From a virus (Duplodnaviria > Caudoviricetes): a DNA stretch of 64,000 bases. The notes below the pieces were generated by a model, which saw nothing but the letters and a program-made list of their open reading frames with translations, did not search any database and had not been told where the DNA came from. Below are positions 5,183-59,169 of this stretch, one piece after another (positions within the stretch are counted from its first letter, which is position 1; each line of letters begins with the position of its first letter). Position numbers and translations under genes: made by a program. The stretch spans positions 32,001 through 96,000 of IMG/VR virus record IMGVR_UViG_3300021403_000004; one strand, written 5' to 3'.

Positions 5183-5840
5183 GCGGCCCGTGACCACTAG
5201 CCAGCCAACCACGCCATGCCGCCGTGAACCCGCAGCCAATGACCGTTAGCCAGCCAACGACGCCATGCCGCCACTCAGTGTCAGCCAGCCAACGTACCGG
5301 TGCCGGCAGCCAAGGAGCAACTAGCCAGTCATGAACCCGCAGCCAGGGGGCGTTAGCCAGCCAGGACAAAAATGCAGCCCTTGAACGTGTGCCAGCCATC
5401 GGGATCATGAGCTAGCCCGCAGTAAACGCGCAGCCATGGAACGCCTGCCTGCCATGATGATGATGATGATGATGATGATGCACATGACCACCAGTCAGCC
5501 ACACTAGACGAGCAGCCATCGGACGCTTGCCAGCCATCATGATGATGCACACGACCTGCAGCCAGGGGGCATTAGCCAGCCACGGTACATCAGCCCTGAG
5601 TGACGGTCAGCCAACGATGCGGAGCCGCAGCCAGGATATACGAGCCAGCCATCATCCCGCAGCCAGGGCATGCAGCCATACGACCTGAGCCAGCCAGCGT
5701 GCCGGTGTCCTGCAGCCACGGGTTTACAGCCAGCCAAGGTACGCGTGCCCCGCGCGGCCAGCAGAACTCAGCCAACCATGCAGCCAAGACGAAGTGGCCA
5801 GCCAGCAGCCTCCTGGCACGCGCGGCGAAGTAGCCAGCCC
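5183..5840 (+). repeat. TIGR-like dual-repeat array 1 (degenerate)
   Basis: recurring GCAGCCA-N9-AGCCAGCCA units; contains an (ATG)9 run at ~5454-5480. Confidence 0.8.
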
Positions 5841-5888
5841 GTGCCCCGATGAGTTATACTGCATCAGACACCAAGAAAGGACGAGGCC

Positions 5889-6137
5889 ATGACAACGCGA
5901 TGGCCTGACGGCTTCAAGCCCCAGTACTGGTCGGGTGACCGCTGGGTGCAGGAGGAGCGCGCCACGCTGCCCGGTGGCATCACGGCGGCGGAACTGCCGG
6001 CGTTCCTGGCAAGCGAGGGCATCCCGGGCACCGCGGAGCTCACTGCCATCACGGAATACGACGAGGACGGCCCCGTCGTGCAGCTCCGGTGGCTCACCGG
6101 CGTCCCGGAAGAGAAGGCAGGAGGGGACAGGGCATGA
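5889..6137 (+). CDS. hypothetical protein
   Basis: TATACT at 5855, GAGG RBS, ATGA coupling to the next gene. Confidence 0.65.
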   Translation: MTTRWPDGFKPQYWSGDRWVQEERATLPGGITAAELPAFLASEGIPGTAELTAITEYDEDGPVVQLRWLTGVPEEKAGGDRA

Positions 6138-6352
6138 TCGTCCACCGTGGCCTGAAGCACGTAAGCGCCACCGGCTCCACGCTCGGGTTCTCGCTAGAGG
6201 ACAACCTGCACGTGCGCCTGGAAGGCAAGGAAGTCCAGCGGGTGCTTGACGAGATCGCCTGGTCCGCACCGGAACTGCTGCACATGGCCCTGGAGCGGCG
6301 CCAGGTCCGGCTCATCACTGAGGCAGTCAGGAACGAGGAGGGCGCGGCATGA
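6134..6352 (+). CDS. hypothetical protein
   Basis: ATGA-coupled on both sides (MIVHRGL...). Confidence 0.65.
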   Translation: MIVHRGLKHVSATGSTLGFSLEDNLHVRLEGKEVQRVLDEIAWSAPELLHMALERRQVRLITEAVRNEEGAA

Positions 6353-7281
6353 CGCACTTCATCGTGCTGGCCTGCCTGGAAGACCCTGGCCAGCTGAGCG
6401 AGATGCTCGCGCCGTACGACGAGAACAGGGAAGCAGCGCCATACCGCAGCTATGAAGACGGCCTGCCCGAGGAGCACTGGGCCGTGAAGAGCCTGCGCGC
6501 TGAGGGCAAGCTCCCAGACGGCCCGCTGACCTGGCAGCAGGTCGCGGACGCGGTCAATGTCGCGTACTGCCAGGGTGCCGACGATGAAGGCGACCATCTG
6601 TTCCTTGATGAGGACACCGACCGGGCCTACATGATGTCCACGCGCAACCAGCAGTCCAAGTGGGACTGGTACACCGTCGGCGGCCGGTGGGGCGGTTCCC
6701 TGCGCTACAAGCCCGGGCACGCTGGCGAAGTCCTGATGCCAGAGCAGTCGTGGAGCTCACCGGAGAAGTTCCCGTTCTTCGGCTGCGATGGCGGCCCCAA
6801 GCGCGCGCTGGACCTGGAGAAGGTGCGCCAGGATGCGGAAGACGAGGCCAGGACGCTGTACCGCGAGTACCAGGGCCTGGTGGCAGGACTGCCAGAAGCG
6901 GTCCCGTTCAGCGTCTTCGCCGGCATGGTCAGCGAGGGCAGCGGCTACACCATCGAGCGCGCGCGGCAGGAGTACCACAGCCAGCTGCGGGTGGCACGAC
7001 TCAATGCGGAGGGCAGCCCGTTCCGGTGGTCCAGCAAGGACGTGCTGGAGGTGTTCTCCGTCAGCGAGGACGAGCACGCACGGCGGCAGCGGGACCAGGC
7101 CGTGCCCGGCTACGCGCTGCTCACGACCGACGGCGAGTGGATGGCGCCAGGCACGATGGGCTGGTTCGGCATGAGTGACGACGGCCCGGACGACCGGGCT
7201 GCCTACCTGCGCGCGGCCAACGCCTACGTGGACAGCCTGCCCGATGACGCGTGGCTGGTCGTGGTGGACTGCCACATCTAG
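6349..7281 (+). CDS. hypothetical phage protein
   Basis: 310 aa; KWDWYTVGGRWGG and terminal VVVDCHI motifs. Confidence 0.8.
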   Translation: MTHFIVLACLEDPGQLSEMLAPYDENREAAPYRSYEDGLPEEHWAVKSLRAEGKLPDGPLTWQQVADAVNVAYCQGADDEGDHLFLDEDTDRAYMMSTRNQQSKWDWYTVGGRWGGSLRYKPGHAGEVLMPEQSWSSPEKFPFFGCDGGPKRALDLEKVRQDAEDEARTLYREYQGLVAGLPEAVPFSVFAGMVSEGSGYTIERARQEYHSQLRVARLNAEGSPFRWSSKDVLEVFSVSEDEHARRQRDQAVPGYALLTTDGEWMAPGTMGWFGMSDDGPDDRAAYLRAANAYVDSLPDDAWLVVVDCHI

Positions 7282-7530
7282 CCAGCAGGAGAACGTGCCG
7301 CCATGACCGTGAAGCCAGCCCCCATGATGCTGAAACCAGTCATCATCCCGCAGCCAGAGCATATGAGCCAGCCAAGATCGCGCAGCCAGATCCGTTCAGC
7401 CAGCCACGATAGGCGAGCATCCTGCAACACGGCCAGTCCATGGGAGCCAGCCGAGATAGTCCAGCCCGCAACGCAGCCAGAGCACGCGAGCCAGCCACTA
7501 TGCCACAGCCCGACGGCTACAGCCAGCCCC
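7280..7530 (+). repeat. TIGR-like dual-repeat array 2
   Basis: GCAGCCA-N9-AGCCAGCCA units. Confidence 0.8.
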
Positions 7531-7583
7531 ACTTCAATGCCTGCGCAGAGGCAAGAGAACTGCGACCCGCTACCATCATGACC

Positions 7584-7696
7584 AGCCCCCGCCAGCCGGG
7601 GCTTACAACCTTTCTCCCCGGTTACAACAGCCCGCCTGCTTCGGGCGTGAGACCGTGCATGGCGCTTCACGCGGAAGGCGAGATCTGGCGGGGGCT
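7584..7696 (+). ncRNA. putative structured ncRNA family C, copy 1
   Basis: terminal stem GCCCCCGCCA/TGGCGGGGGC; internal motifs shared with 8286-8397. Confidence 0.55.
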
Positions 7697-7723
7697 CTCC
7701 CGGGCGCAGGCCCTGCAGTCACT

Positions 7724-7900
7724 GACATCCAATGGACTTGAGCCAGCCAGGGTAGATGTGCAGCCTCAACACCTGAGCCAGCCAATGGAGTACAGTCAAC
7801 GCACCTGAGCCAGCCAGTGAAGTACAGCCATGGCAGGTCAGCCAGCCAAGGTAAATGTGCAGCCAGAGCATGCTAGCCAGCCGAGGCCAAGATGCAGCCT
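7724..7900 (+). repeat. TIGR-like dual-repeat array 3
   Basis: 5 regular units; spacers 9 nt and 7/10 nt. Confidence 0.85.
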
Positions 7901-7925
7901 CACGATAACTGAATAAGGAGAACAA

Positions 7926-8089
7926 GGGCAGGCCAGGAATTGTCCGGCGTTCGGGGAGCGGAATCACACAGCAACATTCATGTGATCCTCGCCGCTCCTG
8001 TCACCGGGCAGGCAAGGCGCACGCCAGGGAAGGGCCTTACACTACAATCTCTTCCCGTGCCTTCAGGAGTTCGATCCTCCTGCTGTCCA
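7926..8089 (+). ncRNA. tRNA-like structured ncRNA family A, copy 1
   Basis: GGGCAG/CTGTCC-A acceptor-like stem; AGGAG-TTCGATC-CTCCT T-arm; two long arms with variable loops. Confidence 0.65.
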
Positions 8090-8116
8090 CGCAAGACAAC
8101 TGAATAAGGGGAACAA

Positions 8117-8281
8117 GGGCAGGCCAGGAATTGCCCGGCGTTCGGGGAGCAGGCTTATTGGAGAAATCCAGTCTCAGCTCTCTGCTCCTGTCACCGGGCA
8201 GGCAAGGCGCACGCCAGGGAAGGCTTCTAATTAGCAGGATGCTTTTCCGTGCCTTCAGGAGTTCGACTCTCCTGCTGCCCA
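8117..8281 (+). ncRNA. tRNA-like structured ncRNA family A, copy 2
   Basis: same scaffold, different loops; T-arm AGGAG-TTCGACT-CTCCT. Confidence 0.65.
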
Positions 8282-8285
8282 CGAG

Positions 8286-8397
8286 GCCCTCGCCGGCCGG
8301 ACCTCCACGGTTAGGCAACTGCCGGTTACAATAGCCGCCTGCATCGGGTGCGTCAACTGACATGCACGAGCGCACGGAAGGCGGATACGGCGAGGGC
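8286..8397 (+). ncRNA. putative structured ncRNA family C, copy 2
   Basis: terminal stem GCCCTCGCCG/CGGCGAGGGC, with compensatory changes relative to copy 1. Confidence 0.55.
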
Positions 8398-8481
8398 GCT
8401 CACCACTGAATAAGCACGTGCCGCCAGAAGACCTCGGCCAGCCAGCGGGATCGTGAAGCATAAACTGAATAAAAGAAACAA

Positions 8482-8631
8482 GGGCAGGCCAGGAATTGCC
8501 CGGCGCTCGGGGAGCGGAGAAATGTGTACTTCACGCTTCACCACCGCTCCTGTCACCGGGCAGGCACGGCGCATGGCAGAGAAGACCCTTTTTCTTCTCG
8601 CGCTTCGGAAGTTCAAGTCTCCCGCTGCCCA
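8482..8631 (+). ncRNA. tRNA-like structured ncRNA family A, copy 3
   Basis: same scaffold, shorter second arm; T-loop TTCAAGT. Confidence 0.6.
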
Positions 8632-8647
8632 CGCGCGACAACGTCAT

Positions 8648-8872
8648 CCAGCCGCCAGCGCTCTTAAGCCCGCCAAAGTAGACCTGCAGCCAGCAGATCC
8701 CAGCCATCGGACCCCAGCCAGCCATCGTTCTCCAGCCAGCGCTTGGCCTTGGCAATGCCTGCGCAGAGGCAAGAGAACTGCGACAGCCAGCGCATGTGAA
8801 TCCGCCAAGATCGCACAGCCAGATAACCTCAGCCAGCCATCGTTCTTCAGCCAATGAACCCGGGCCAGCCAA
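8648..8872 (+). repeat. TIGR-like dual-repeat array 4 (degenerate)
   Basis: CAGCCA-N9-AGCCAGCCA units. Confidence 0.7.
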
Positions 8873-8889
8873 GGGAAAGGACAGTACCC

Positions 8890-9432
8890 ATGACAACGAA
8901 GGTAAAGGCCGAAGCCGCTAACGACCGCGCCCGCCGGCTATGGGACGGGGACGCGCACAGCACGGCGCAGGCGCTGCTCAAGGAGCTGATGGACGACCCG
9001 TCGCCCCAGGAGGCCATCCTGGTGCTGCTGCCGTGGATCACCGACCGGGTCCGGGCGGCCATTCGCACCGACGTGCGGGCAGCGGAGGAGAGCGCCTTCA
9101 CTAACCCGTCCGGCCGGCCCGACCGGGTCGCCCAGCACATCCGCTCGCAATCGGGCGCGCTGCCCGCGCTGGACAACCTGGAGATGCTGCTGTCGCTGCC
9201 GGTCCTGGTGCCCGTCGCGGGCAGCGTGACGCAGTCAGTCCTGTGGAAGGACATGACCATCGCGGATCACCAAGCCAGAATCGGCATGATCAGCAAGCCC
9301 CTGGCCGCCATTAACGCGGCCATAAGCCGCCATCGGTGGTCTATCGCCGAGATAAAGAAGCACAAGGTGGAGTGCCTCGGGCAGATTGACCTCGCCGTGC
9401 TCCGGGCTGAGATGCTCAGCTCCCGGGCGTAA
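8890..9432 (+). CDS. hypothetical protein embedded between arrays (candidate Tas accessory)
   Basis: AAGGA RBS; 180 aa; flanked by arrays on both sides. Confidence 0.8.
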   Translation: MTTKVKAEAANDRARRLWDGDAHSTAQALLKELMDDPSPQEAILVLLPWITDRVRAAIRTDVRAAEESAFTNPSGRPDRVAQHIRSQSGALPALDNLEMLLSLPVLVPVAGSVTQSVLWKDMTIADHQARIGMISKPLAAINAAISRHRWSIAEIKKHKVECLGQIDLAVLRAEMLSSRA

Positions 9433-9448
9433 TACCGCCGCAGAACCT

Positions 9449-9867
9449 CAGCCAGCTATCGCAGGACAGCGAACTTGCCGCCAAGAGACCCTAGCCAGCC
9501 CTGGTTCCCCAGCCGGGAGCTTTTGCAGCCAAGCTACTACAGCCAGCCAACGACCTGCAGCCAAACTACCAGAGCCAGCCAAGGTACCGCAGCCTAGGGA
9601 GATCAGCCAGCCACTGAAGGCCTGCAGCCAAACTACCGGAGCCAGCCAATGCCGTGCAGCCAAGCTACTGGAGCCAGCCAACGATCTTCAGCCAACCTAC
9701 CGGAGTCAGCCAAGGACCTGCAGCCGATGATCATCAGCCAAGCTACTACAGCCAGCCAACGACCTGCAGCCAAGGATCGACAGCCAGCCAATGTTCTTGT
9801 GCAGCCATGTACTGACAGCCAGCCACGGAGCCGGTGGCACATGCAGCCAAGGTTTGTGGGCCAGCCA
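9449..9867 (+). repeat. TIGR-like dual-repeat array 5 (most regular; directly upstream of the tasA-like gene)
   Basis: ~11 units, mostly 32 nt: GCAGCCA-N9-AGCCAGCCA-N7. Confidence 0.9.
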
Positions 9868-9896
9868 AAGAAGAACAGAAGGGAAAACAAAAGAAA

Positions 9897-10793
9897 ATGA
9901 ATAAGGAGTACTGGCAGCTTCGCACTGCCGGGCGGAATTACTACGACGCCTACCGGCTCACCACCCGGATCGGCAACCGGCTGCGCGCGCTTGCCCGGGC
10001 CGGCGAGGCCTATGACATCGACCTTCATGCGCAGCTGGAAGCGGCGACTGCCATGAAGGACACCAGCGGGCGCATCCTCGTCCGCGTCTACAAGAACATC
10101 GGCCCCCTGAAGGTCCGGGAATTCCAGAAGGCCACCCTGGGCATCGGCGAGGTGTGGATGGCCCGGCTGATCGGGGAAGTGGGCGACTTCGTCACCTACA
10201 CCGAGGCGTGGTGGGAAACCCCGGATGACGCGCGCGGCCCGCTGGCCTCCGATGACTTCGATGACGACGACGATGAGCTCGGTGAAGAGGACGAGGACGA
10301 AGCGCCCCGGCCCAAGCGGGTGCTGGCAATCGGCGACGTGCGCTCCATGGGCGTCCGCGAGCTGTGGGCGTACTGCGGGCACGGTGACGCCGAGCGGCGC
10401 CGGCGCCGCAACCAGACGCAGGAGGAGGCCCTGGCTTCCGGGAACCCGGCCGCGAAGATGATCGTGCACCAGATGGCCGAGTTCGCGCTGCGCTCCAACG
10501 GGGCACCGGACAAGAACGGCAAGGCCCGCGGGCAGACCCCGTACTACCCGTGCTACGTGCGGGCCCGGGCGCACGCAGAAGAGCTGCACCCCGACTGGAA
10601 GGCCGGCCACGTCTACAAGCACGCGGTGCGGATAGTCGGCAAGGCCATCCTCAAGGACCTGTGGCGCGTCCAGCACGGCTACGAGCCCATCTACGGCGCG
10701 CACCAGGATGACTGGGTGCCGCGCCGCCCCCTGGTGCAGCCTGAGCGCACGGCACGAGCCGCCGTCCCGGGGCGCGCACCCGCTGGCGTGTAA
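9897..10793 (+). CDS. tasA: TasA-like Nop-domain RNA-binding protein (IS110 C-terminal-like, no nuclease domain)
   Basis: N-terminal coiled coil; LGIGEVWMARLIGEVGD, LWAYCG, GNPAAKMIV, HAVRIVGKAILKDLW match the IS110/Nop fold pattern; no DEDD/RuvC or HNH; flanked by dual-repeat arrays. Confidence 0.8.
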   Translation: MNKEYWQLRTAGRNYYDAYRLTTRIGNRLRALARAGEAYDIDLHAQLEAATAMKDTSGRILVRVYKNIGPLKVREFQKATLGIGEVWMARLIGEVGDFVTYTEAWWETPDDARGPLASDDFDDDDDELGEEDEDEAPRPKRVLAIGDVRSMGVRELWAYCGHGDAERRRRRNQTQEEALASGNPAAKMIVHQMAEFALRSNGAPDKNGKARGQTPYYPCYVRARAHAEELHPDWKAGHVYKHAVRIVGKAILKDLWRVQHGYEPIYGAHQDDWVPRRPLVQPERTARAAVPGRAPAGV

Positions 10794-10809
10794 AGCTCGC
10801 CACCGTTCT

Positions 10810-11032
10810 TCAGCCAGGATCCTGGAGCCAGCCAAGGTAAACGAGCAGCCAGAGAACAACAGCCAGCCCGCGAACTCGTGCAGCCATTGAAGACCAGCCA
10901 GCGTATTCGTGCAGCCATCCCCGCCCGAGCCAGCCATGGGCCGTGTGAACATGCAGCCACGCAACCAAAGAACAACAACCAGCCATTGACCATGTGACGG
11001 CTCTTAATAATCCACGCATGAGCAGCCAGCCC
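10810..11032 (+). repeat. TIGR-like dual-repeat array 6
   Basis: GCAGCCA-N9-AGCCAGCCA-N10 units downstream of the tasA-like gene. Confidence 0.85.
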
Positions 11033-11051
11033 ATCATCTGGTGAAGCAAGG

Positions 11052-11093
11052 AAAAAGCCCCGTACCGGGAAACCGGTGCGGGGCTTTTCTTTT
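11052..11093. terminator. bidirectional intrinsic terminator
   Basis: AAAAAGCCCCGTACCGG-GAAA-CCGGTGCGGGGCTTTTCTTT between convergent transcription units. Confidence 0.85.
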
Positions 11094-11121
11094 GCCTTTT
11101 TTCACGCTGCCCCTGGACGCG

Positions 11122-12108
11122 TCATGCCAGGCCCTTCACCACGGCCCAGTCGCGCAGCGCCTGCGCCGCGTGCTTGTTTCCTGCCGTGTGCATGAGCGTG
11201 GTCCACGCGCTGGTCTTGGCCCACAGCTCCTGGTCGTGCACGTCATGGAGCGCCGGGGCGGGCGGCACGGGGACTGGCGGCGCTGGAACGGGAGCTGGTG
11301 GCACCGGGACGGGAAACGGTCGGCCGGTGAGCGCAGTGTAGTCCGCGGCAAACTGGGGCAGGCTGACGCCGTCCAGGAATTCCCGGCTGTTGAGGTGCTC
11401 AGGCCAGATGACGGCCCAGCACTCCTGCACCTGCCGGCTCCAGAACGCGTCCGTGAAGCTCGTCTCCTGGGCCCACGTGATGAACGCCTCGTCGCCGCCG
11501 AGCTGCCCGGTGCCACCGGAACCATAGCCGCCGACCAGCACGGAGTGGCCGCCCTCGTCCGGTGAGCCGGGCACGTAGTCCCAGGGCTGGCCGACGCTGA
11601 ACTGGTCCTGGTTGGCGGACTGGACCACGATGCCCGTCCACACCGCGCCGAAGATGGCAATGGCGGCCTTGACCTCATCCGGGTTGGTGTAGTCGACGGC
11701 AGCGAAGCCGAGCGCCTTCACGCCGTCCGGGCCGCCGTTGGCCACCAGGTCCTCCAGCGCCGTCTGGATGTCCATGCCGTTGTCCTGCTGGGGGAAGCCC
11801 GGGTTCTGCGTGGCGTAGAACGCCCCTACCTGCGGCAATGTCGGGTAGTACTCCGTGCTGAGCACGGCCGTGACCAGGCGCCGGAAATCCGCCCATGTTA
11901 CCGCGACGCAATCGCCCGCACCTTCGGCCGGGAACCCTGCCGCGACGTTGGCGGGATCAGGCCCGTTGCCGAGCATCTGCCAGCCCTGCAGCCGCGCCAG
12001 GTAATCGGCTGCAGGCGGGTGCGCGGGGACCACGCCCGTCAGTGACCGGCTCAGCCGGACGCGCGGGCGCCGGGGGTCATTCGGGCGGCGGCCGAATTTG
12101 AGGGTCAT
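11122..12108 (-). CDS. papain-like cysteine peptidase (possible lysin)
   Basis: GDCVAV catalytic Cys, GGHSVLVGGY His, FITW; Pro-rich linker and small C-terminal domain. Confidence 0.7.
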   Translation of the reverse strand: MTLKFGRRPNDPRRPRVRLSRSLTGVVPAHPPAADYLARLQGWQMLGNGPDPANVAAGFPAEGAGDCVAVTWADFRRLVTAVLSTEYYPTLPQVGAFYATQNPGFPQQDNGMDIQTALEDLVANGGPDGVKALGFAAVDYTNPDEVKAAIAIFGAVWTGIVVQSANQDQFSVGQPWDYVPGSPDEGGHSVLVGGYGSGGTGQLGGDEAFITWAQETSFTDAFWSRQVQECWAVIWPEHLNSREFLDGVSLPQFAADYTALTGRPFPVPVPPAPVPAPPVPVPPAPALHDVHDQELWAKTSAWTTLMHTAGNKHAAQALRDWAVVKGLA

Positions 12109-12181
12109 GCATGCTCCCAGGTCCGTGGCTGGCCGGCTGATCGTCCCAGGCGGCGTATTTCACGGTATCGCATGGTGAGCG

Positions 12182-12568
12182 TCACGTGCAGGGGTGATGG
12201 CCGTGCCGGGCAAACCACTTGTTCGCCTTGAGGAACCGGCCTTCTCGCCAGAAGCCCCATGCCCGGGACTTCGGGCCAGTGAGCATCAGCGTCCAGGCCC
12301 CGTGCTCGCCCGGGATGACCGTGTGCTGGTGCAGGGCCGGGCGCACCCGGGCTGAGCCTGCCATCAGCACGTCATCGCCTGCCGGGCTGCGATCGGTGTA
12401 GCAACCGCGCAGCATGACCGTGGCGAACCACCACGGGTGATCATGGAAGGCCCGGTCATCATCCGGCTTCAGCCAGTGGTGCAGGCGCACCGAGCCAAGC
12501 CTTGCCTCCAGCTTCCACCGGATGACGTACGGGCATTGCGGCAGCCCGAGCTTCTCGGCCCAGGTCAT
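12182..12568 (-). CDS. cupin-like protein
   Basis: RLHH..DDDRAFHDHPW..LRGCY..HTV..AWTL motif; start moved to MTWAEK because the upstream part is tRNA-like. Confidence 0.7.
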   Translation of the reverse strand: MTWAEKLGLPQCPYVIRWKLEARLGSVRLHHWLKPDDDRAFHDHPWWFATVMLRGCYTDRSPAGDDVLMAGSARVRPALHQHTVIPGEHGAWTLMLTGPKSRAWGFWREGRFLKANKWFARHGHHPCT

Positions 12569-12574
12569 CGTCAG

Positions 12575-12646
12575 CACCGGGGAATGGTTTCGGGCCACTG
12601 ACCTCTGCGTAATCTGCGCAGCGCTCTTCCTCTGAGCTACCCCGGT
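12575..12646 (-). tRNA. isolated tRNA-like cloverleaf (loop CAGATTA; non-canonical T-loop)
   Basis: ACCGGGG/CCCCGGT acceptor, GCTC/GAGC D-arm, CTGCG/CGCAG anticodon stem, AGTGG-CCCGAAA-CCATT T-arm. Confidence 0.6.
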
Positions 12647-12741
12647 CCGGCGGAAGCCCCCGGACTTCGTTGGCTCCCACTCGGTCATGTCTCTTACAGT
12701 ATCATACATTCACGCCTGCACGTATCACGCAGGACCATTGT

Positions 12742-12812
12742 GGCTGGCAAGCCAATGATGGCGGCAGGTTCCTGACATGTCTCTTGTGGCTGGTAATCCG
12801 ATACTGGCTGCA
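12742..12812 (-). repeat. two TIGR-like units
   Basis: minus strand: TGCAGCCA-N9-TACCAGCCA and TGCCGCCA-N9-TGCCAGCCA. Confidence 0.55.
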
Positions 12813-12960
12813 GGGTTAGTCAGGCAGTCCCGGTGCCCTTGCAGTCCTTGCAGGGCACGAAGGTTGATGCCCCAGGCTCCAGTCCTGAGCCCCCACAGGT
12901 GGGGCAGTCTTTCCTGGTTACCCGGATCATGGTGAGGTTCATGACATGTATCTTACAGTA

Positions 12961-14042
12961 TCACAGCTGCTCTAGCCACCCGAGCAGCTTCCGGGCGTGG
13001 CTGGCGAACGTCCGGTCCGCGATGGCCACCTGCGCCTTCCGGGCCGCCTCCTCGCGCTCAGCCTCGTGCCTGCACCACCAGCGCAGCTGCTCTGCGGCGT
13101 CTTCCGGCGTCGCGAACGAGGGCAGCATCCCGAGGACCTCATCGCTTTCCGGCCGCGGGTCCCTGAGGAAAAACAACCGGGACGCTGCCATCTCCACCTC
13201 GCGCGGGCCCATTGCCCAGCCCTCGCCCGCGTGCTCTTCCTCTGATTCCCGGCGGTACAAGTTGATGCCGCACGCGGCGTGCCGGTACAGCTCAGCCGTC
13301 TCGGCATTGTCCACGCAGGCTGCGTCCTGGGACAGGTACGCGCGCAGGGGCGAGCCCTCGCCCGTTTCCTCTTTCCAGTACGAGCCGCCCAGCAGGAAGT
13401 CCAGGCCCGCGAAGCCAGGCTGGGTGACCATTGCCTCAAAGAACCGCACCCGCGATTCAAAGGCCGTGCCGATGAAGGTGAGGTCCGCGGCCAGCTCCGG
13501 GTTGACTGGCCCCGTGCGCGGGTGGTGCACGTCCGGCCGGTACGCGTGCGGGATGTAGTACGCCGGGCCAAGTTCCTGGTACCGGGCAAGGTTCACGGGG
13601 TCGTTGATGAGGTTGATGTCACCGAACGGCGCCCGGGTCAGTTGCTCCGTGTCCTGGTACGGCGATTCCGTGTGCAGAAGCACTATCTTGTGCCCTCGTG
13701 CACGGAGAAGCGCAAACGTCCCAGCTTCAACAAAAAAGGCGCTCACGAACACGATCACCTGGGGCCAGAAGGAGTAGGTGGCATGCGTGATGCCTTGCAT
13801 GGACGCGCGGATCGCTTCCAGCTGGTTCATCGCCTGCCGGACGATAGGATGCCCGGTCTCGTCCTTCTCTTCCGTGTCAATAAGGGCGCGCGAGTAGAAG
13901 TAAAGGCGGCCCTTTAAATCATTGGTGTTGTATAGCGCGACCTCGCAACCCTGCTCCCGCAGGCCGTCGGCCCATCCCCGGTATACGTCCGCAACACTGA
14001 AATCAGGGCCGTTAAACCAGGGTGTACTATCAGCACCCTCAT
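12961..14042 (-). pseudogene. GT-B glycosyltransferase (CgeB/YkvP-like) with a frameshift after codon 9
   Basis: AGGAGGTG RBS before MRVLIVHPG; the GPDFSVADVY...ESPY...DLTFIGT...INLYR..GPREVEMAA frame is offset by -1. Confidence 0.7.
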
Positions 14043-14058
14043 GTTGGCATCACCTCCT

Positions 14059-14598
14059 TCACAGCGATTTCCGCTGTTTACGCTGCAGGTACATCTTTCG
14101 GTAATGATCCTTGCGGGCACCACTTGCATTCCTGGCGTTATCCCGCGCCTGAGCGCATGCCCGGCATTCCCTCTTGCCATTTTTGCGCAGGATGGTATTA
14201 GCTTCCGTGAATTCATGCCCTTGCGGGCACTTGTTCTCGCGAACCAGGATAGCAGTCGGGTGCATCCCGCGGAGCATGTTGACTGACCGGGTCACCGGGT
14301 CGCCGTGCCAAGGGTTCACGCAGGCCCGGTTACGGCACAGGTGATCAGGTTCCAGCTCAGGATCGAACTCGCCACGGTACAGCCGCCAGGCAATCCGGTG
14401 CGCTGTCGTTGGCCGCCACTTCCCGTCTCCGCACTTAACATTGAACAGAGCGTAACCTGTCTTCTGGAAGTGCGCGCCTGACCAGGCCCAGCAAGGTCCC
14501 GGGCACAAATCCTCATCCGGTGATGGTGGCCCTGGCAGCAGCTTGGCCTCGAACCGCTTGTGCATATCCCAGGTAACCGGGATTTGAACTCGTTTCAC
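14059..14598 (-). CDS. HNH homing endonuclease
   Basis: CWAWSG..GY..AHR..DHLCRNRACVNP.H; CPQGH..RECRAC. Confidence 0.9.
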   Translation of the reverse strand: MKRVQIPVTWDMHKRFEAKLLPGPPSPDEDLCPGPCWAWSGAHFQKTGYALFNVKCGDGKWRPTTAHRIAWRLYRGEFDPELEPDHLCRNRACVNPWHGDPVTRSVNMLRGMHPTAILVRENKCPQGHEFTEANTILRKNGKRECRACAQARDNARNASGARKDHYRKMYLQRKQRKSL

Positions 14599-14703
14599 AC
14601 ACGGAGATTACCTAGTCCTGGGTGTAAAAAACAAGACTTGGCACCCCGGTTAAGCACCTGTACCCATACAGGAACGCGCCCGCGTCTTTGCGCAGGTCGT
14701 CGC

Positions 14704-15228
14704 TCACGAAGCGGGCAGCCCGAGGGCCGGAGCGACGATCGTGCGGTACCACTGGGTCGCCTGCGCGCCCCCGCGGGCGAGGTCCGTCAGGCCCTCATAG
14801 CCCTCATGCACCTCGCCGGTGAACTCGTTCTCCCAGGCCCAGCGGGCGCCCTGGCCGTCCAGCCACTGGCCCAGCTCCGCGACCAGGCGGGCGTGCAGGT
14901 CACCGCAGCCATTGCCGTCGGAGTCCCGGTAGCCGTACGGCGTGTCGAAGGAGGCCTCCAGCCAGTGCGGGAAGCAGCGCCGGTGGCGCGCGTCCTCGTC
15001 ATCAGGCTCGCAGTACCGGTGGTGGCCGCCCTCGGCAACCAGTGGCGCGTCCGTGCCATAGTGAACGTCCAGCAGCGCGAGCAGCCCCTGGCCGGGCTTG
15101 TTCCCGATGTAACCGCCCTCATCGGTGAACTTGATGCCCTCGTGAGCGCCGATGAGCCGGTTGCACGCTACCCACACGGCCCGGTAGTCCACCTTGCTGA
15201 TCACGTACACGCGTGTGTCCAGGGTCAT
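14704..15228 (-). CDS. hypothetical protein
   Basis: ATGA-coupled ORF with GC3 bias. Confidence 0.7.
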   Translation of the reverse strand: MTLDTRVYVISKVDYRAVWVACNRLIGAHEGIKFTDEGGYIGNKPGQGLLALLDVHYGTDAPLVAEGGHHRYCEPDDEDARHRRCFPHWLEASFDTPYGYRDSDGNGCGDLHARLVAELGQWLDGQGARWAWENEFTGEVHEGYEGLTDLARGGAQATQWYRTIVAPALGLPAS

Positions 15229-15497
15229 TGCACGTTCTCCTCAAACCAGGCGGCCATCTCACGGGCGCGCTCGTGAACGGCGTCCAGCTCCTGCTGCGTC
15301 CAGGCAGGCAGCTCCAGGCGCGTCACGGTGCCCGCGTCGGTGTCCAGCACCAGGACGTCACCCGGCATCACGTCGTGCAAGCCCCACCGGGCCAGCTCCA
15401 CCTCTGCCACCATGCTCACGCTGCCCTCCCGGCGCAGGTCAACAGTGGCCTCATCGCCAGTGACCTCGATCACGATGCCGTGCCAGGGCTGGCTCAC
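15225..15497 (-). CDS. hypothetical protein
   Basis: coupled ORF. Confidence 0.65.
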   Translation of the reverse strand: MSQPWHGIVIEVTGDEATVDLRREGSVSMVAEVELARWGLHDVMPGDVLVLDTDAGTVTRLELPAWTQQELDAVHERAREMAAWFEENVQ

Positions 15498-15877: not shown

Positions 15878-15919
15878 GACGTTAGCATACTGCGTCAGAC
15901 TGCGCCGCGCTGTGCCGGG

Positions 15920-17330: not shown

Positions 17331-17338
17331 TTGTGGCA

Positions 17339-17986: not shown

Positions 17987-18000
17987 CGTGACCTCCTGGG

Positions 18001-18261: not shown

Positions 18262-18305
18262 GTGCCCTCCTTCTTGCTGTATGCTGCAGTATAACGGCCG
18301 CAGGT

Positions 18306-51046: not shown

Positions 51047-51071
51047 GCAGCCATTATGCAACAGCCAGCCA
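51047..51071 (+). repeat. single TIGR-like unit
   Basis: GCAGCCA-TTATGCAAC-AGCCAGCCA, intergenic. Confidence 0.55.
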
Positions 51072-51085
51072 CGCCCCGCGAGCGC

Positions 51086-54037
51086 TTACCTGACCGACTT
51101 GTGCACGTCATAAGACCGGCGCTTCTTGTTGAGCGCCCAGTAGGCGAGCGTCGCGGCAGTCACCGGAGTGATGTCATCCTCGCTCGTGCGCCGGGACCAG
51201 CCGCGCCCGCCATCGCCGATGTCCCGCGTCTGGGCGCTGGCAATCGCGCTCCACAAGGCGGGCGCCTTCTCCTTGCCCAGGTGGATCACGCGCCGCCCGC
51301 GGACGCCCGTCACCATCAGGGCGAAGGCGGCCGCCTCGTCACCGGAGCCGGCCACCAGGACCTCGATCCCGGCGCGCTCGGCCGCGTCCGCCAGCGCCGC
51401 CGCCGGGCCATTGCGCGGGATGCAGACCGCTGCCGGGCGCCAGTGCCTCTTCAGCTCCGCCAGCCGGGCGACCACCCAGTCGGTTCCCTCGCGGGAGCAG
51501 CCCCGCGGGATCTCCAGCACCGTGCGGTACGGTTGCTGCTCCTGCCGTGCCGAGCGCACCGGGCGCCCGTCAGCGTCCACCTTGACGACCCGGAGCTGCG
51601 GCTGCTGCGGCTGCTCCGGGCGCTCCCAGGCTGCCGCGATGGTGGCCACCGTCATCTCCGGGTTCACGTCCACCGCGAACGCCAGTGGCTGCACGGCGCC
51701 ACCCGGCTCAGCCATCCCGCACGCGGCCCAGGCTTCCTCGGACACCACGGCCCAGGCTTCCTCTTCTGCAGGCCAGTCGCCGATGCCCAGCCGCTCGCGA
51801 TCGAACTGGGCAGGCGTCAGGGCGGCGAACTCCTTGCGCACGTGCTCGTAGCTGATCCGGGAGCCGAACGCGGGATTGGCCTTGGCCCAGGTGCGCGGGT
51901 CGTCCCGGTCATCGTGCTTGCCGCACACGATGTAGTGATTGTCCTTGCGCCCGCGGACCTCATCACGCGGGCACGTGTCCAGGTGCGGGTCAGCCGACCA
52001 TTCCGCGCCCGCCACCGTGGGGTCCTGCCGCAGCAGGCGACGGCGCACGAGGGAGAGCTGGACGCTGTCCTTGACCCCGGCCGAGGCCGTGTAGTACATC
52101 TGCGGGTTCGGCACGGCCGACAGGGTCGGCATGGACGCGCCCACCTGCTCATCCGTGAGGAACATCGCCTCATCGTATACAACCACGTCGGCCGTGAAGG
52201 CCCGTCCGGAGCCCCGGGACCGGGCCAGGAAGCGCAGCCGGCCCGACACGGACTGCCGCACCCGCTTGCCGCCCGCTCCGAAGATCAGCGTCGGCGTGGC
52301 CCGCAGCTCGATCGCCTCATCGCCGTGGCTGGTCATCACCCGCTTGACCCGGCGGCTCAGCTCGTCATAGGAGCCGATGGTGTCCCGGACCCGGCGGAAG
52401 TGCTCGGCAGCAGCCTTGAACTCGTGCGCGGTGTGGATGATCATCCGCTCGCCGAACAGGAACAACCCGCCAAGCTCACGCACTTCCAGGCATGAGTTGT
52501 GCGTTGGCGTGAACGCCTTCCCCACCAGGTAAACGCCATCTGGCGCGTCCACCTGGATGCAGCGCGTCGGCACCGACGGCACCGGCCGGATGCCCGTGAT
52601 GCTCATGACCTCATGCGGCTGCGTCACTTCCCGCATCGTCGCGGGAACCTTGTGCCCTGGCGCGTCCATGTCGGCATCCCTGAGGCGCCGGTTCCGGTGC
52701 ATCTGGCACAGTCCCGGGCCCTCACCGCCAAGACGGCCCGCGTACGGGCGCGCGCAGCCAGGCCACTCACAGCTCCGGGCCGCGCGCTCCTGAGGGGGAC
52801 GCCAGCGCTCAGCCTTGCGCGGCATCGCGAACGGGTTGAACGCCGGGGTCCACAGGAACCGGGCGCGGTCCTTCCTGCGCACGCCGTTCAGTGACGTGGC
52901 ACCATCATGCCGGGTCACCCGGATGCCGAGGCTGCGCGCCAGCCGCCAGAAGTCCTCGGCCAGGCCGGGCAGCGTCGTAGTGAACTCAACTTGCGGGGCC
53001 TTGTTCGTGATCGCGATCGACCCGTCGCTGTCCATCAGGCCGCGCAGCAGTGCCAGCCGCTGGTCCGGCGACGCCGTCAGGTACAGCTCCGGGATGCGCT
53101 TCTTGCCAGCTCCCCAGATGCCAAGGTCCTGGCACGCCATGCGATACTTCCCTGGCTCCCTCAAGAGGAACCAGATCTCTTGCACCTTGGTGACAGGGTG
53201 CTCACGAACACGGTCAACCTCAGCGCCAGCAGACCTGATGGCGCTTTCTACCCAATCCCGGTCCATTTTGCCTGCAAATATAATCGCACTACGGCTAGCG
53301 CCGTCTCCAAGCCAGAAACCCAGCAGGTACGGGTCGATCGGCAGATCTGCCGGGGGTGTCTGCGGGACCGCATCGCAGCGAACCCTCCAGTTGTACTCCA
53401 TTCTGCCGTTATCAGGACGCCTGCCTCCAACATCTCCTGCCAGGTCGCGTGTCCGCTTGACTTCCCACTTCTTGTGATCCCGGCGCCTCACCCGCCAGAG
53501 GTGATCCTGACCGACAACGTGTGACGAGCCGTCCGTGAATGAAACCTCATAGCACGGCTCATCCGGAAAGACCTCCGTCCTGGCGATTACCCGTGTCGGC
53601 CTGCCTCCCGATCCGTAGACCGAATCGCCGACCCGAATATCCTTGAAGGTTGTCCAGCCACGTGATACAGTGAGGATGTCAGTCGAACAAGCATTCGGGT
53701 TCTTGCCGTTCTGGCGGGACACGATCGCCGCTACCTCAAAGGCTGCCCAGCGGCCATCCGGCTGGACCCCGCATGCCTCTGCCAGCCACCATTTCTGCCA
53801 GCCGTCCAGGTCATACCCGCACGACGGCGCCCACTGCAAGAGCTCCGCCGACGCGTAATCCCCGCACCCGAGGCCGGGATAGCCGCGCTGGCCGCACGTC
53901 CGGCACTCAGGGTCCTTCTCCCGGTGCCGGGGCGGCGACGTCCAGAAGCGCGGCAGCTGGCTGCCCAGCAGCTCACCATCGTAGACCGTCCCGTCCGGGA
54001 GGAAGACGAGCGGGCGGCCGAGGGGCTGGGCAGTCAC
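51086..54037 (-). CDS. terL: terminase large subunit with intein
   Basis: RQNGKN Walker A, HTAHEFK, GRAF, VYDEA Walker B, ANP, RERLG, FAVDV. Confidence 0.95.
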   Translation of the reverse strand: MTAQPLGRPLVFLPDGTVYDGELLGSQLPRFWTSPPRHREKDPECRTCGQRGYPGLGCGDYASAELLQWAPSCGYDLDGWQKWWLAEACGVQPDGRWAAFEVAAIVSRQNGKNPNACSTDILTVSRGWTTFKDIRVGDSVYGSGGRPTRVIARTEVFPDEPCYEVSFTDGSSHVVGQDHLWRVRRRDHKKWEVKRTRDLAGDVGGRRPDNGRMEYNWRVRCDAVPQTPPADLPIDPYLLGFWLGDGASRSAIIFAGKMDRDWVESAIRSAGAEVDRVREHPVTKVQEIWFLLREPGKYRMACQDLGIWGAGKKRIPELYLTASPDQRLALLRGLMDSDGSIAITNKAPQVEFTTTLPGLAEDFWRLARSLGIRVTRHDGATSLNGVRRKDRARFLWTPAFNPFAMPRKAERWRPPQERAARSCEWPGCARPYAGRLGGEGPGLCQMHRNRRLRDADMDAPGHKVPATMREVTQPHEVMSITGIRPVPSVPTRCIQVDAPDGVYLVGKAFTPTHNSCLEVRELGGLFLFGERMIIHTAHEFKAAAEHFRRVRDTIGSYDELSRRVKRVMTSHGDEAIELRATPTLIFGAGGKRVRQSVSGRLRFLARSRGSGRAFTADVVVYDEAMFLTDEQVGASMPTLSAVPNPQMYYTASAGVKDSVQLSLVRRRLLRQDPTVAGAEWSADPHLDTCPRDEVRGRKDNHYIVCGKHDDRDDPRTWAKANPAFGSRISYEHVRKEFAALTPAQFDRERLGIGDWPAEEEAWAVVSEEAWAACGMAEPGGAVQPLAFAVDVNPEMTVATIAAAWERPEQPQQPQLRVVKVDADGRPVRSARQEQQPYRTVLEIPRGCSREGTDWVVARLAELKRHWRPAAVCIPRNGPAAALADAAERAGIEVLVAGSGDEAAAFALMVTGVRGRRVIHLGKEKAPALWSAIASAQTRDIGDGGRGWSRRTSEDDITPVTAATLAYWALNKKRRSYDVHKSVR
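52496..53698 (-). mobile_element. class 3 intein with LAGLIDADG endonuclease (401 aa)
   Basis: NGKN|PNAC..; DHLW, TRCIQV, PTHN|S (W-C-T signature); DPYLLGFWLGDG and LLRGLMDSDG. Confidence 0.88.
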
Positions 54038-54085: not shown

Positions 54086-54357
54086 TGGCTGCCTTACCTT
54101 GCTTGGCTGCACCTCTTTCTTGGCTGGCTGTCGTGCTCTGGCTGCACGCATCGCGTGGCTGGCTGCCGTGCCCTGGCTGCACGCATCGCGTGGCTGGCTG
54201 CCGTGCCCTGGCTGCACGCATCGCGTGGCTGGCTGCCGTGCCCTGGCTGCACGCATCGCGTGGCTGGCTGCCGTGCCCTGGCTGCACGCATCGCGTGGCT
54301 GGCTGCCGTGCCCTGGCTGCACGTCTGCAATGGCTGGCTGTCGCCTTCTGGCTGCAC
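54086..54357 (-). repeat. TIGR-like array of eight 35-nt units, mostly identical
   Basis: minus strand GCAGCCA-GGGCACGGC-AGCCAGCCA-CGCGATGCGT repeated, with unique end units. Confidence 0.9.
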
Positions 54358-54358
54358 G

Positions 54359-54565
54359 CTACGCGCCCGGCGGTACTTCCTCTACCTCCAGCAGGGGCCA
54401 GCAATGATGGACCATGCCGTCGTCCTGGCGCAGCTCCACGTCGCCGCCGTCCCCGTACCCTAGCAGGACGCCTTCCTGGACGACGTGCGCGGCTAGCTTA
54501 ACCTTGACGCGCTTGCCCAGCAGGGACGTCACGTGCGCGTGCCACTGCGTCAGCATCTCGCTCAC
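54359..54565 (-). CDS. small Sm/LSm-like protein
   Basis: LLGKRVKVKL....EGVLLGY...DVEL resembles the Sm1 motif. Confidence 0.5.
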   Translation of the reverse strand: MSEMLTQWHAHVTSLLGKRVKVKLAAHVVQEGVLLGYGDGGDVELRQDDGMVHHCWPLLEVEEVPPGA

Positions 54566-54753
54566 GGTGCCGTCACCACGGCCTTCAGGCTGGCCGTGAA
54601 CTCCTGCCACGCGCCAGCCGGGAACTCCAGCACAGTGCGGCACGCGCTCCCGGCTTGCTTGGTGTCGCGCACGCCCACCCCTCCACGGGCCGTGCCAGCC
54701 TCCACGCACAGAGCCTGGTTATGCGTGTAGCTGGATGTGCGCCAGCCGTTCAC
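54562..54753 (-). CDS. DUF397 protein
   Basis: WRTSSYT..CVEAG..VGVRDTK..LEF...W..F. Confidence 0.85.
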   Translation of the reverse strand: MNGWRTSSYTHNQALCVEAGTARGGVGVRDTKQAGSACRTVLEFPAGAWQEFTASLKAVVTAP

Positions 54754-55969: not shown

Positions 55970-56265
55970 CAGCTGCTGCCGTTTCCTTCCCCTGACAGCA
56001 AGGCCGTCAGGCGGTTCAGTTCCTTTTCCATCACGCGGTTGCGGCTCTTGAACACCGCCAGCAGGGCCACCGCCTCATCCACTGACAAGGCCCTGGTGCC
56101 CGCCCTGGTCAGCGACGGGGGCGTGTGTGCGCTCCAGCCCGCATGGCCTGCCTTCTGCATCTCGAACGCGATGCGCTCTGACGTCCAGCCGGACTTGATC
56201 TGGCTGTGCAGCAGCTTCTTCACCGCGTCACTGATCGTGGTGCTCGTTACGATCCGCGAGTTCAC
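55969..56265 (-). CDS. XRE-like HTH protein
   Basis: GWT.E.IA..M..AG..W......G.R.LSVDE. Confidence 0.6.
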   Translation of the reverse strand: MNSRIVTSTTISDAVKKLLHSQIKSGWTSERIAFEMQKAGHAGWSAHTPPSLTRAGTRALSVDEAVALLAVFKSRNRVMEKELNRLTALLSGEGNGSS

Positions 56266-56769
56266 CTTGAGACTGCTCCTTTCACCCGCTCACGCTGAGC
56301 AGATGTCACAACTATACCCTAAAATACTCTGTTGGCAACCCGGGCGCGACCACGGCAACCGGAGGGCTGCAGACGGCATGCGAGCAGCGAGCCTGGGTAG
56401 CGGCAAGGCCGGAGGCTGCCATGGGACTTGTCAGCGCGATTCTCTTCGGCGTTGCTTTTGTGCTGTAATGGGCCGGCGGCGGGAAAGCACCGTTCACCCC
56501 GGAAGGACCTGACCATCCTCGGGCTGTTCTTCCTGGTCCTGGCCATCATCTTCGGTCCCTGGTGGCCTAGCCGCCGGTAGCCTTCCGGACTGCGGCCTGC
56601 CCTGGCTGCACGGGCACGACGACGAGGCTGGCCACGACCGGGAACGGTGCCTGCGCGAGCACGGCGCGCTCAGCGGCTTCCCGGTTCGCCGCCGTCAGGC
56701 CGCAAGTGTAGATGGCGCCAGCCGGGGACTCAGCGCGTGCCTGCCAGGATGCCATGACCGTCATGACCG

Positions 56770-57051
56770 TCACTCACCGCCTGCCAGCCTGCGCTCCCGG
56801 CGCTCCCGGACCTCATCGGTGGCGTCCCCCTTGACCTCTCCGGGGGCCATGTCCCGCAGCTGGGCGAGCGCCAGCCGGATCTCGCGGGCGTAAAGGGCTG
56901 CGTCCCGGGGGGTCAGCGGAACCTCATCTATCTGGCGGGCGCAGTACAGCGCCACGGCAGCCACCCCGCCCCGGCGCATGTCGGCGGGCAGCCGGGCCAG
57001 GTCACTGAGCACGGAGCCTTCCATGGACTGCTCTTCCTGAGGCGGCGTCAT
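56770..57051 (-). CDS. terminase small subunit (putative)
   Basis: AL..ARQID..AA..RE.R..L..L..D..DE.R.RR..R helical pattern; upstream of terL. Confidence 0.6.
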   Translation of the reverse strand: MTPPQEEQSMEGSVLSDLARLPADMRRGGVAAVALYCARQIDEVPLTPRDAALYAREIRLALAQLRDMAPGEVKGDATDEVRERRERRLAGGE

Positions 57052-57052
57052 G

Positions 57053-57691
57053 TCAGTCTCCGCTTCCCGACCTGCTGCGCTCGTCATCGGTGTAGGAAAT
57101 GCCCGCTGACTGCCCGCGGGCATACCGCGCCGAAGCCGCTGACGCCGCCCGGTAAGAGTCATGCGTGGCCCGTGGCGTCGCCGTATAGTGCAAGGACCTC
57201 TCGCCCGGGATTCCCAGGCTCGCTGCCTCCGCGAAGGCATCAACGTTCGCGCCCACGTAGGCGACCTGCCACCCGTACTCCTGCTGCTGCCGGGTGATAA
57301 GGTCCCGGACCTGGCTGCGCGTGTACTCCTGAGACGCGTTCTCCTGGCCGTCAGTGGTGATGAGCATGATGACCTTCCCGGGCCGGTCGCCCTCCGGCAA
57401 TGCGGCCAGCTGCTCGCCTGTCCGGGTAATGGCCTGCCCGCACGCGTCCAGCAGTGCGGTCATGGCCCGCGGCACCAGCTCGTACGACAGCGCGGCCTCC
57501 AGGGGGGCGAAGTCGTGCACGGTCTCGGGCACGCTGTCGAACTGGCACAGCGTCATGGTAGCCCGGCCAGGCAGCGCGGCCTGTTCCTGGATGAAGAGCC
57601 GGATGCCTGCCTGCGCTTCAGGCTGGATGGCGGCCATGCTCCCGGACCGGTCCGTGATGAGCAGGTAATGCCGGTAATCAGGATCAGTCAT
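57053..57691 (-). CDS. vWA domain protein
   Basis: DRSGSM MIDAS, TALLDA.G, TDGQENAS. Confidence 0.9.
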   Translation of the reverse strand: MTDPDYRHYLLITDRSGSMAAIQPEAQAGIRLFIQEQAALPGRATMTLCQFDSVPETVHDFAPLEAALSYELVPRAMTALLDACGQAITRTGEQLAALPEGDRPGKVIMLITTDGQENASQEYTRSQVRDLITRQQQEYGWQVAYVGANVDAFAEAASLGIPGERSLHYTATPRATHDSYRAASAASARYARGQSAGISYTDDERSRSGSGD

Positions 57692-57875
57692 CGCCGTCCT
57701 CCACGCCGCACTCCTCGTCCAGGTACCCGCCCGCGCCATCAGCCCGGATGGTGTCACCCGGGCTGATGTCGGCCCCGCACCCGGCACAGCTGCCGTTGTA
57801 CGCCGCCACGAACCACGGCCCGGGATCCTTGCTCATGACGCCAGCCTAGTCCTCCCAGTGCTATACTGCAACGGA

Positions 57876-57900
57876 CAGCCATCGGCCATAAGCCAGCCCT
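57876..57900 (+). repeat. single TIGR-like unit just after a TATACT box
   Basis: ACAGCCA-TCGGCCATA-AGCCAGCCC; TATACT at 57862. Confidence 0.5.
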
Positions 57901-59168: not shown

Positions 59169-59169
59169 C

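Follow-up and report, generated by a model that had tools for sequence, protein, structure and literature searches.

How could a single protein be served by guide-like units that lie scattered over a whole phage genome? This question is raised by a 64,000-base window of viral DNA (bases 32001-96000 of the linear virus record IMGVR_UViG_3300021403_000004, which comprises 106,870 bases and is ~69% complete by estimate), in which an earlier note had described short repeat-spacer units at intergenic places far from an effector gene. That note proposed a genome-wide guide library served in trans by one protein, with stoperator-like DNA binding sites as the alternative. The analysis reported here indicates that the dispersed units are probably the guide RNA (tigRNA) genes of a dual-repeat TIGR-TasA system and that one TasA protein, encoded within the window, would serve all of them. 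TIGR-Tas systems are a recent discovery, first reported in 2025 (PMC12045711).

A scan for the unit motif, GCAGCCA-N9-AGCCAGCCA with up to 2 mismatches, returned 61 matches in the window, whereas 100 dinucleotide-preserving shuffles yielded 0.15 on average and never more than 1, and every place named in the earlier note was among them. The whole record holds 74 units (69 distinct) at 18 sites, with 11 of the sites inside the window and 7 outside. The units are also essentially intergenic, as had been claimed: 65 of the 74 fall outside crude gene calls, the other 9 being in over-extended open reading frame (ORF) starts or doubtful small ORFs, and the non-coding 17.4% of the genome contains 163 of the 321 occurrences of the core hexamer CAGCCA.

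Alignment of the 74 units revealed an order consisting of an 8-nucleotide (nt) repeat, TGCAGCCA, a 9-nt spacer (spacer A), a 9-nt repeat, AGCCAGCCA, and a second spacer (spacer B). The first repeat reads (T)GCAGCCA, and the leading T, present in 47 of the 74 units, gives it the form TG...CCA. Spacer A comprises exactly 9 variable bases with some positional bias. Where another unit follows, spacer B measures 9 nt in 18 cases (a 35-nt period), 6 nt in 16 cases (a 32-nt period), and 5 nt in one. In solitary or terminal units, TG is located exactly 9 nt past the second repeat in 23 of 39 cases, and TGC in 13, while eight other offsets gave counts of 0-4; even solitary units thus finish in the first bases of the next first repeat. 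According to the published main text, dual-repeat arrays alternate 8-12-nt repeats with 9-nt spacers, carry repeats of the form UG...CCA, and end in a truncated edge repeat, and the UG and CCA motifs can diverge (PMC12045711). The units examined here likewise alternate two repeats in the 8-12-nt range with spacers of ~9 nt, and the arrays adjoining tasA, which end in a truncated edge repeat, stop 20 nt before the gene and resume 17 nt after it.

The tasA-like gene itself, at 9897-10793 on the plus strand, encodes a 298-residue Tas protein with a Nop-type fold that is 100% identical over 298 residues to a database protein. It was first called as a 319-residue ORF at 9834-10793 and was recognised as Tas via a homologous locus, L307, that is described below. 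The protein matched the NCBIfam family NF052498 (TIGR_Tas_endo; E 2.8e-17, 63.4 bits). A confident AlphaFold (AF2) model built from 42 homologues (predicted local distance difference test score, pLDDT, 87.4; predicted template modelling score, pTM, 0.80) was compared to the PDB with Foldseek, and ranks 1-10 were all TasR or TasH chains (probability 1.00; E 1.5e-6 to 3.9e-5; template modelling score 0.52-0.57 on the query), with IS110-type recombinases next. The fold is therefore that of a Tas protein with a Nop-type RNA-binding fold; a six-frame search of the record with the Pfam Nop family (PF01798) gave no match, and the PHROGs label for the protein is 'transposase' (phrog_4285). The model begins directly at coiled-coil helices and the 215-position family profile aligns over its full length in two segments, the remainder being an acidic low-confidence insert and a 39-residue tail. 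Since coiled-coil helices stand at the start and a Pfam search found no HNH, RuvC, or other nuclease family, in keeping with the nuclease-free TasA type, the modelled protein looks like TasA. Past the last helix, two positions of the C-terminal tail are conserved, His260 being shared by 29 of 42 aligned sequences and Tyr266 by 28 of 32. These residues may be the counterpart of the Tyr/His pair in a C-terminal Tas loop that has been described as processing dual-repeat tigRNAs inside the edge repeat (bioRxiv 10.64898/2026.09.09.750476). The profile search, the model, and the Foldseek matches, together with the detection of one locus, bear out the earlier suggestion that a single Nop-fold Tas protein is encoded.

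The pairing of this protein with these units recurs in L307, a metagenome contig of 2,127 bases that contains, in the same order as in the window, a copy of the 180-residue gene found upstream of tasA (30% identical), an array, a copy of Tas (50%), and a second array. The arrays of L307 are regular 35-nt repeats of the form TGCAGCCA-9-TGACAGCCA-9 in which both repeats read TG...CCA and TGC comes directly after all but one of the 13 units. Together with the unit architecture and the Tas gene in the window, this homologous locus supports the identification of the units as TIGR-type dual-repeat guide units. The earlier note had added that the proposal would fail if the motif were equally common in relatives lacking the Nop protein. 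It is not: none of five related records found via a structural protein (G001-G005; 13-75% complete) carries a unit at 2 or fewer mismatches or a Tas homologue, and L307 pairs its Tas with arrays that share the first repeat. One of the five, G003 (158,651 bases), is syntenic with the record at ~70% amino-acid identity; the block 4409-10793 is missing from it altogether, and none of its intergenic 8-mers is enriched.

The same units occur on three further contigs of 8-12 kb (L033, L066, and L227), where they are placed between homologues of structural and replication genes, with no tas gene on the fragments. The units of L227 lie just upstream of a homologue of the gene for a 983-residue protein, as they do in the window. 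Elsewhere the positions of arrays differ; in L033, for example, one occupies the gap between the homologues of 30493-31545 and 31987-33630, a gap that contains no array in the window. In wider searches, the single-unit pattern was found in 66 stretches of viral contigs, of which only those in L033 and L066 are related to the window, and a strict two-unit pattern had no matches in genome contigs or viral contigs. A loose four-hexamer pattern matched 91 genome stretches and at least 113 metagenome stretches, with homologues beside the motif only in L227 and L307; most high-count loci of this pattern resemble (GCCA)n-type simple repeats, judging from the one inspected (L200), and were set aside. 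Relatives of the 310-residue protein encoded by gene 6349-7281 are without the motif, and the named phages include no close relative of the record.

Cluster A mycobacteriophages carry stoperators, which are many short asymmetric intergenic sites, co-oriented with transcription, that present a single fixed DNA sequence to a repressor. The units resemble these in being numerous, short, asymmetric, and intergenic across a phage genome, in being co-oriented with transcription, and in being served by one protein, and one of them overlaps a promoter start region (57862-57909). They could, on this analogy, be sites at which a phage protein binds duplex DNA, in the manner of stoperator-like operators or centromere-like repeats, with no RNA guides involved. 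Unlike stoperators, however, the units enclose variable inner segments, with two fixed repeats placed around variable 9-nt stretches, form tandem arrays of up to 13 units, and have an RNA-guided protein alongside. Moreover, the cognate Tas gene is placed amid the arrays, its close homologue in L307 has textbook TIGR arrays, array sequence is present in RNA libraries, and Pfam and PHROGs searches of the flanking proteins identified no regulator, including no DNA-binding regulator in the block. Nothing specific was found in favour of the stoperator alternative, which is considered highly improbable.

Five sites with 42 units make up a 6.5-kb plus-strand block around tasA (5183-10995). The first is an array of 13 units at 5183-5814, with unit starts 26-82 nt apart, that lies between genes 4600-5178 and 5889-6137 and 4.1 kb upstream of tasA. 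It is followed on the same strand by nine units at 7297-7893 (in groups at 7297-7497 and 7725-7883) downstream of gene 6349-7281, by five units at 8420-8881 that reach up to gene 8890-9432, by an array of 11 units at 9477-9877, mostly with a 32-nt period, just before the tasA start, and by an array of four units at 10810-10995 directly downstream of tasA. A terminator-like hairpin of 16 pairs followed by a T run, at 11053-11088 on the plus strand, closes this plus-strand tas block; an Rfam search of the record returned tRNAs only, plus weak matches at this hairpin.

The remaining sites are 1.9 to 56.9 kb from tasA, with eight of them more than 10 kb away, and include a regular eight-unit array 43 kb off on the other strand, two-unit sites, and five single units. 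At 12741-12821 on the minus strand, two complete units 46 nt apart, each with TGY 9 nt past the second repeat, are positioned between minus-strand genes and in the sense orientation. On the plus strand, a solitary complete unit at 17209-17243 is antisense to the flanking minus-strand genes. Six units at 18323-18832 (+) are likewise antisense, in their case to flanking structural genes; the 32-nt units at 18323-18507 are degenerate and include three identical copies, and better units, three in number, follow at 18708-18822. A solitary unit with 0 mismatches at 51047-51081 (+), 40 kb from tasA and between two minus-strand genes, has AGC rather than TGC after its spacer B. The regular array, at 54086-54365 on the minus strand, has eight units with a 35-nt period (8 + 9 + 9 + 9 nt), of which five are identical, ends in a truncated repeat TGC, and lies in the sense orientation between genes 54359-54709 and 51086-54037. 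Finally, a solitary unit at 57875-57909 (+) occupies the leader of a plus-strand methyltransferase-like gene 47 kb from tasA. Because the units at 12.7 and 17.2 kb are also present, with no differences, in DNA contigs from a second soil sample (11636-13463 and 13438-18322), these distal units are not an assembly artefact of one sample.

Among the 65 intergenic units, 34 are oriented like both neighbouring genes and four are antisense to both. The larger of these figures would suit a role mainly in cis on RNA, in which TasA or a recruited host RNase cuts the first repeat, thereby punctuating operons and setting mRNA stability, with a guide role secondary or absent. Such a role would also suit the presence of arrays in almost every gap of the plus-strand block 4600-11000 and the conserved His260/Tyr266 tail when this is set beside the published Tyr/His edge-repeat processing (bioRxiv 10.64898/2026.09.09.750476). 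However, a pure processing signal needs no variable 9-nt spacers, four units run antisense to both neighbours, and several solitary units have a -10 box of their own. Two of the -10-like boxes described earlier do precede solitary units on the same strand: the box TATACTGC, which occurs five times in the genome, is found at 17138, 71 nt upstream of the unit at 17209, and at 57862, 13 nt upstream of the unit at 57875. A function chiefly in cis is accordingly judged quite unlikely.

Evidence from RNA was sought in assembled contigs of three metatranscriptome runs (X5, X6, and X7) from three studies, mapped on positions 3000-20000. Array sites account for 17% of the 17,001 bases compared, and 14 of the 24 listed RNA contig pieces overlap them, all 14 without differences from the window; in terms of depth bins, 24 of 39 array-bearing bin-run combinations had depth versus 18 of 51 others. 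The pieces cover the 5.2-kb array (5269-5529 in X5; 5311-5796 in X7), the 7.3-kb units (7309-7554 and 7596-7811 in X6; 7596-7815 in X7), the array upstream of tasA (9526-9764 in X5; 9623-9825 in X7), and the array downstream of it (10821-11131 in X5; 10846-11049 in X6). Two distal sites are also represented, namely those at 12.7 kb (12694-12935 in X6; 12732-12916 in X7) and 18.5-18.8 kb (18594-18782 in X6; 18485-18751 in X7). Separately, a 32-nt sequence (AATGCCTGCGCAGAGGCAAGAGAACTGCGAC type) is duplicated at 7536-7567 and 8754-8785 (+), in two array regions. Contigs of two runs end or switch at this repeat, with joints in X6 and X7 that skip 1182-1183 nt, and these joints are read as the mapping of other molecules.

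Recurrent spacer families between distant arrays had been taken, in the earlier note, as a sign that units spread by duplication or recombination. Spacers at different sites are indeed more alike than expected: pairs with 2 or fewer differences numbered 13 for spacer A, versus 3.5 +/- 1.8 in within-spacer shuffles, and 18 for spacer B, versus 3.7 +/- 1.8. Similarity in spacer A is, however, unrelated to similarity in spacer B (r = 0.02), which indicates that the families reflect a position-specific base preference and not the copying of whole units between sites. Duplication is evident in tandem within arrays, as in the five identical units at 54 kb and the three at 18.3 kb, so that this part of the claim holds and the part concerning whole-unit copying between sites does not.

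Taken together, these observations favour guide production from dispersed genes. Each complete unit would give rise to an RNA of ~35 nt that opens with AGCCA from the 3' part of the first repeat, continues through the 9 nt of spacer A, AGCCAGCCA, and the 9 nt of spacer B, and closes with UGC from the 5' part of the next first repeat. The units would be transcribed together with flanking genes or from promoters of their own, and TasA from its single gene would bind and trim the unit RNAs wherever they are transcribed. With the two spacers acting jointly, TasA would then bind DNA targets, and the most likely outcome would be repression of transcription, which other TasA proteins have been shown to exert. 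As far as sequence goes, the earlier picture of a genome-wide library served by one protein is largely upheld by the TIGR-type units, the one Tas protein, and the dispersal.

A number of observations weigh against this interpretation. The second repeat, AGCCAGCCA, has CCA at its end and begins with AG rather than UG. The 6-nt (n = 16) or 5-nt (n = 1) form of spacer B and the 32-nt period depart from the canonical design, many units are irregular or degenerate, and the 5.2-kb array is uneven in spacing. Spacers show position-specific bias rather than free variation, and the identical units at 54 and 18.3 kb add no new guide. Targets were searched for in the form of spacer A plus the reverse complement of spacer B, a form inferred from the cleavage geometry given in the published main text (PMC12045711). 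The 37 distinct canonical guides, compared in this form to their own record (G000) and to G003, gave 1 match with up to 2 mismatches and 14 with 3, versus 1-2 and 15-19 in three control arrangements. The -10-like box at 18290, previously assigned to the neighbouring array, belongs to the opposite strand, where it overlaps a better promoter (TTGACT-16-TATACT, 10/12) that is directed away from the array. The RNA contigs carry no strand, ends, abundance, small RNAs, or processing and could include DNA carry-over. Their mapping covers positions 3000-20000, which leaves the 51-58 kb sites outside it, and any part of this stretch over which there is no listed RNA piece, including the unit at 17209, is uninformative either way. 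For the protein, the NF052498 score is under the 100-bit equivalog cut-off, and because sub-cut-off matches also occurred in 5 of 14 control genomes this match alone is not decisive. Lastly, the profile search detected only one Tas locus in the 107-kb record, and with the record ~69% complete a second tas gene is possible.

In view of such irregularities, the distal units could be relics or passengers, that is, pieces of array copied by recombination or by a process like that of miniature inverted-repeat transposable elements, which are neither loaded nor used. The many units with a degenerate motif (2 mismatches) or a shortened spacer B would fit this, as would the variation in array position among relatives, exemplified by the array of L033 where the window has none, and a target search without excess over controls. 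Yet solitary units retain the two repeats at their exact 9-nt separation along with the truncated repeat's TG (23 of 39), two of them are behind a same-strand TATACTGC box, and RNA-library contigs include two distal sites, at 12.7 and 18.5-18.8 kb. Distal units are, moreover, also found in an unrelated Tas phage. Of 35 viral loci with distant Tas homologues, three were inspected (L333, L345, and L320) and have repeat pairs of their own beside tas. In G006 (117,211 bases), the Tas protein of which is 26% identical, 37-nt units with different repeats gave 28 exact matches compared to 0 for a reversed-pattern control, and distal units are positioned 14, 26, and 45 kb from its tas gene. In G007 (132,904 bases, 94% complete), the units are within ~3 kb of tas, along with one possible match 60 kb off. 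Of the three records scanned over their full length (G000, G006, and G007), two have clear distal units. Abandoned copies are thus an unlikely explanation for the distal units, and production of guides for TasA from dispersed genes remains the favoured one.

The targets of these putative guides were also sought among bacteria. For the guide that is present five times in the 54-kb array, matches were found in 4 of 401 genomes from a single actinobacterial class, versus 1 of 401 for a reversed control; all four matches have a 1-nt gap and no conserved site and are therefore treated as chance. A host among the Actinomycetota is only hinted at, by the soil origin, the 67% G+C, and the portal relatives in actinobacteriophages.

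Several features of the neighbourhood deserve description. The 180-residue helical protein encoded at 8890-9432 (+) is conserved directly upstream of tasA homologues, including the 30% identical copy beside the Tas of L307, and has 15 homologues, at least 6 of which are apparently on contigs that also encode a Tas homologue. No Pfam or NCBIfam family was found for it, and its AF2 model (pLDDT 76.5, pTM 0.44) had no PDB fold match at E <=0.001. It may be a partner of TasA; a ParB-like partner was considered and rejected, given neither a ParB family match nor a PDB fold match. PDB sequence searches with two flanking proteins gave no match. Inside the first array, a perfect (ATG)9 run at 5454-5480 (+) directly follows a degenerate unit, and shorter ATGATGATG runs follow another unit at 5537.

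Between the TIGR units of the block are three copies, ~80% alike, of an element of ~185 nt (7906-8092, 8098-8283, and 8461-8645, all on the plus strand), the third of which is interleaved with the units at 8420-8881. Its consensus fold combines an acceptor-like stem of 6 bp with a T-arm-like hairpin (GGAGTTCGATCCTCC type) and a pair of long arms that differ at their tips among copies. Compensatory changes occur at six pairs; there was no ARAGORN call and no Rfam match at E <=1. The element could be a tRNA-like processing or decoy RNA. In two of the viral loci with distant Tas homologues, L345 (10.8 and 12.1 kb) and L320 (12.4 kb), single units or short arrays start immediately past tRNA-like 3' ends. 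The window also contains 29 tRNA genes (ARAGORN) at 59099-63876 (-), in a stretch of lower G+C, with a tRNA-Sec at 61301-61383 by Rfam; a 30th ARAGORN call, a tRNA-Ile at 12574-12646, is inside a predicted gene and may be false. The gene at 51086-54037 (-), which has the eight-unit array just upstream of its start, encodes the 983-residue protein, and a LAGLIDADG homing-endonuclease domain at residues 315-379 suggests an intein in this protein; only 470 residues align with its homologue in G003. A 183-nt tandem repeat (2.7 copies, 74% match) is situated at 45080-45563, within or beside the predicted gene 44902-45693.

A bolder version of the favoured interpretation would tie guide production to the whole transcription programme of the phage, much as with small nucleolar RNAs (snoRNAs). 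If early and late transcripts, antisense ones, and 5' leaders all contain units, guides would be timed by the stage of infection, and their excision by TasA would also cut polycistronic mRNAs at gene boundaries. The three tRNA-like elements, and the tRNA-adjacent units of other Tas phages, would then provide additional natural punctuation for processing, of the kind that is built into engineered tRNA-guide arrays. This extension is speculative, and as a whole it is considered unlikely.

Among known systems, the closest is dual-repeat TIGR-TasA as described in the main texts of two accounts, with which the present system shares a solo Nop-fold Tas, two CCA-ending repeats, 9-nt spacers, a unit of ~35-36 nt, arrays on both sides of tas that end in a truncated repeat, and carriage by a phage (PMC12045711; bioRxiv 10.64898/2026.09.09.750476). 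It differs in having 12 sites outside the tas-flanking arrays, 8 of them at 10-57 kb and on both strands, with some single units behind a -10 box of their own, a second repeat that starts with AG, and many 32-nt periods. As in tasParB-tasA operons (PMC12045711), a conserved small gene is just upstream of tasA with an array between the two and arrays are present on both sides, although the 180-residue neighbour here is without a ParB family or fold. The organisation also recalls the box C/D snoRNA genes of archaea and eukaryotes, which supply guides for a Nop-domain protein and are scattered singly or in small clusters. The likeness is in genome organisation only, since no K-turn/L7Ae-type element and no fibrillarin are found here and published Tas targets are DNA. 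Clustered tigRNAs have in fact been contrasted with sparsely distributed snoRNAs (PMC12045711).

The first array survey was limited to 5 kb on each side of tas (PMC12045711), and a later account places arrays upstream of, downstream of, on both sides of, or inside tas, with one branch seemingly arrayless (bioRxiv 10.64898/2026.09.09.750476). The main texts of these two accounts make no mention of distal, dispersed, or orphan arrays, nor does the wider literature searched; supplements or TIGRSafari may record them. While TIGR-Tas itself is known, what is new here, as read from sequence, is the spread of predicted guide units over a whole phage genome rather than only beside tas.

In this phage, putative guides are located tens of kilobases away from tasA, singly, on either strand, and behind what may be promoters of their own, and a second, unrelated Tas phage has distal units as well. 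Catalogues built on tas neighbourhoods will miss such guides, and Tas genes that seem arrayless may have guides elsewhere in the genome. Since the TIGR system is present in soil metatranscriptomes, native expression data are obtainable. Furthermore, the placement of the putative guides inside defined phage transcription units would offer a concrete handle on the timing of each guide and on the role of TasA in infection.

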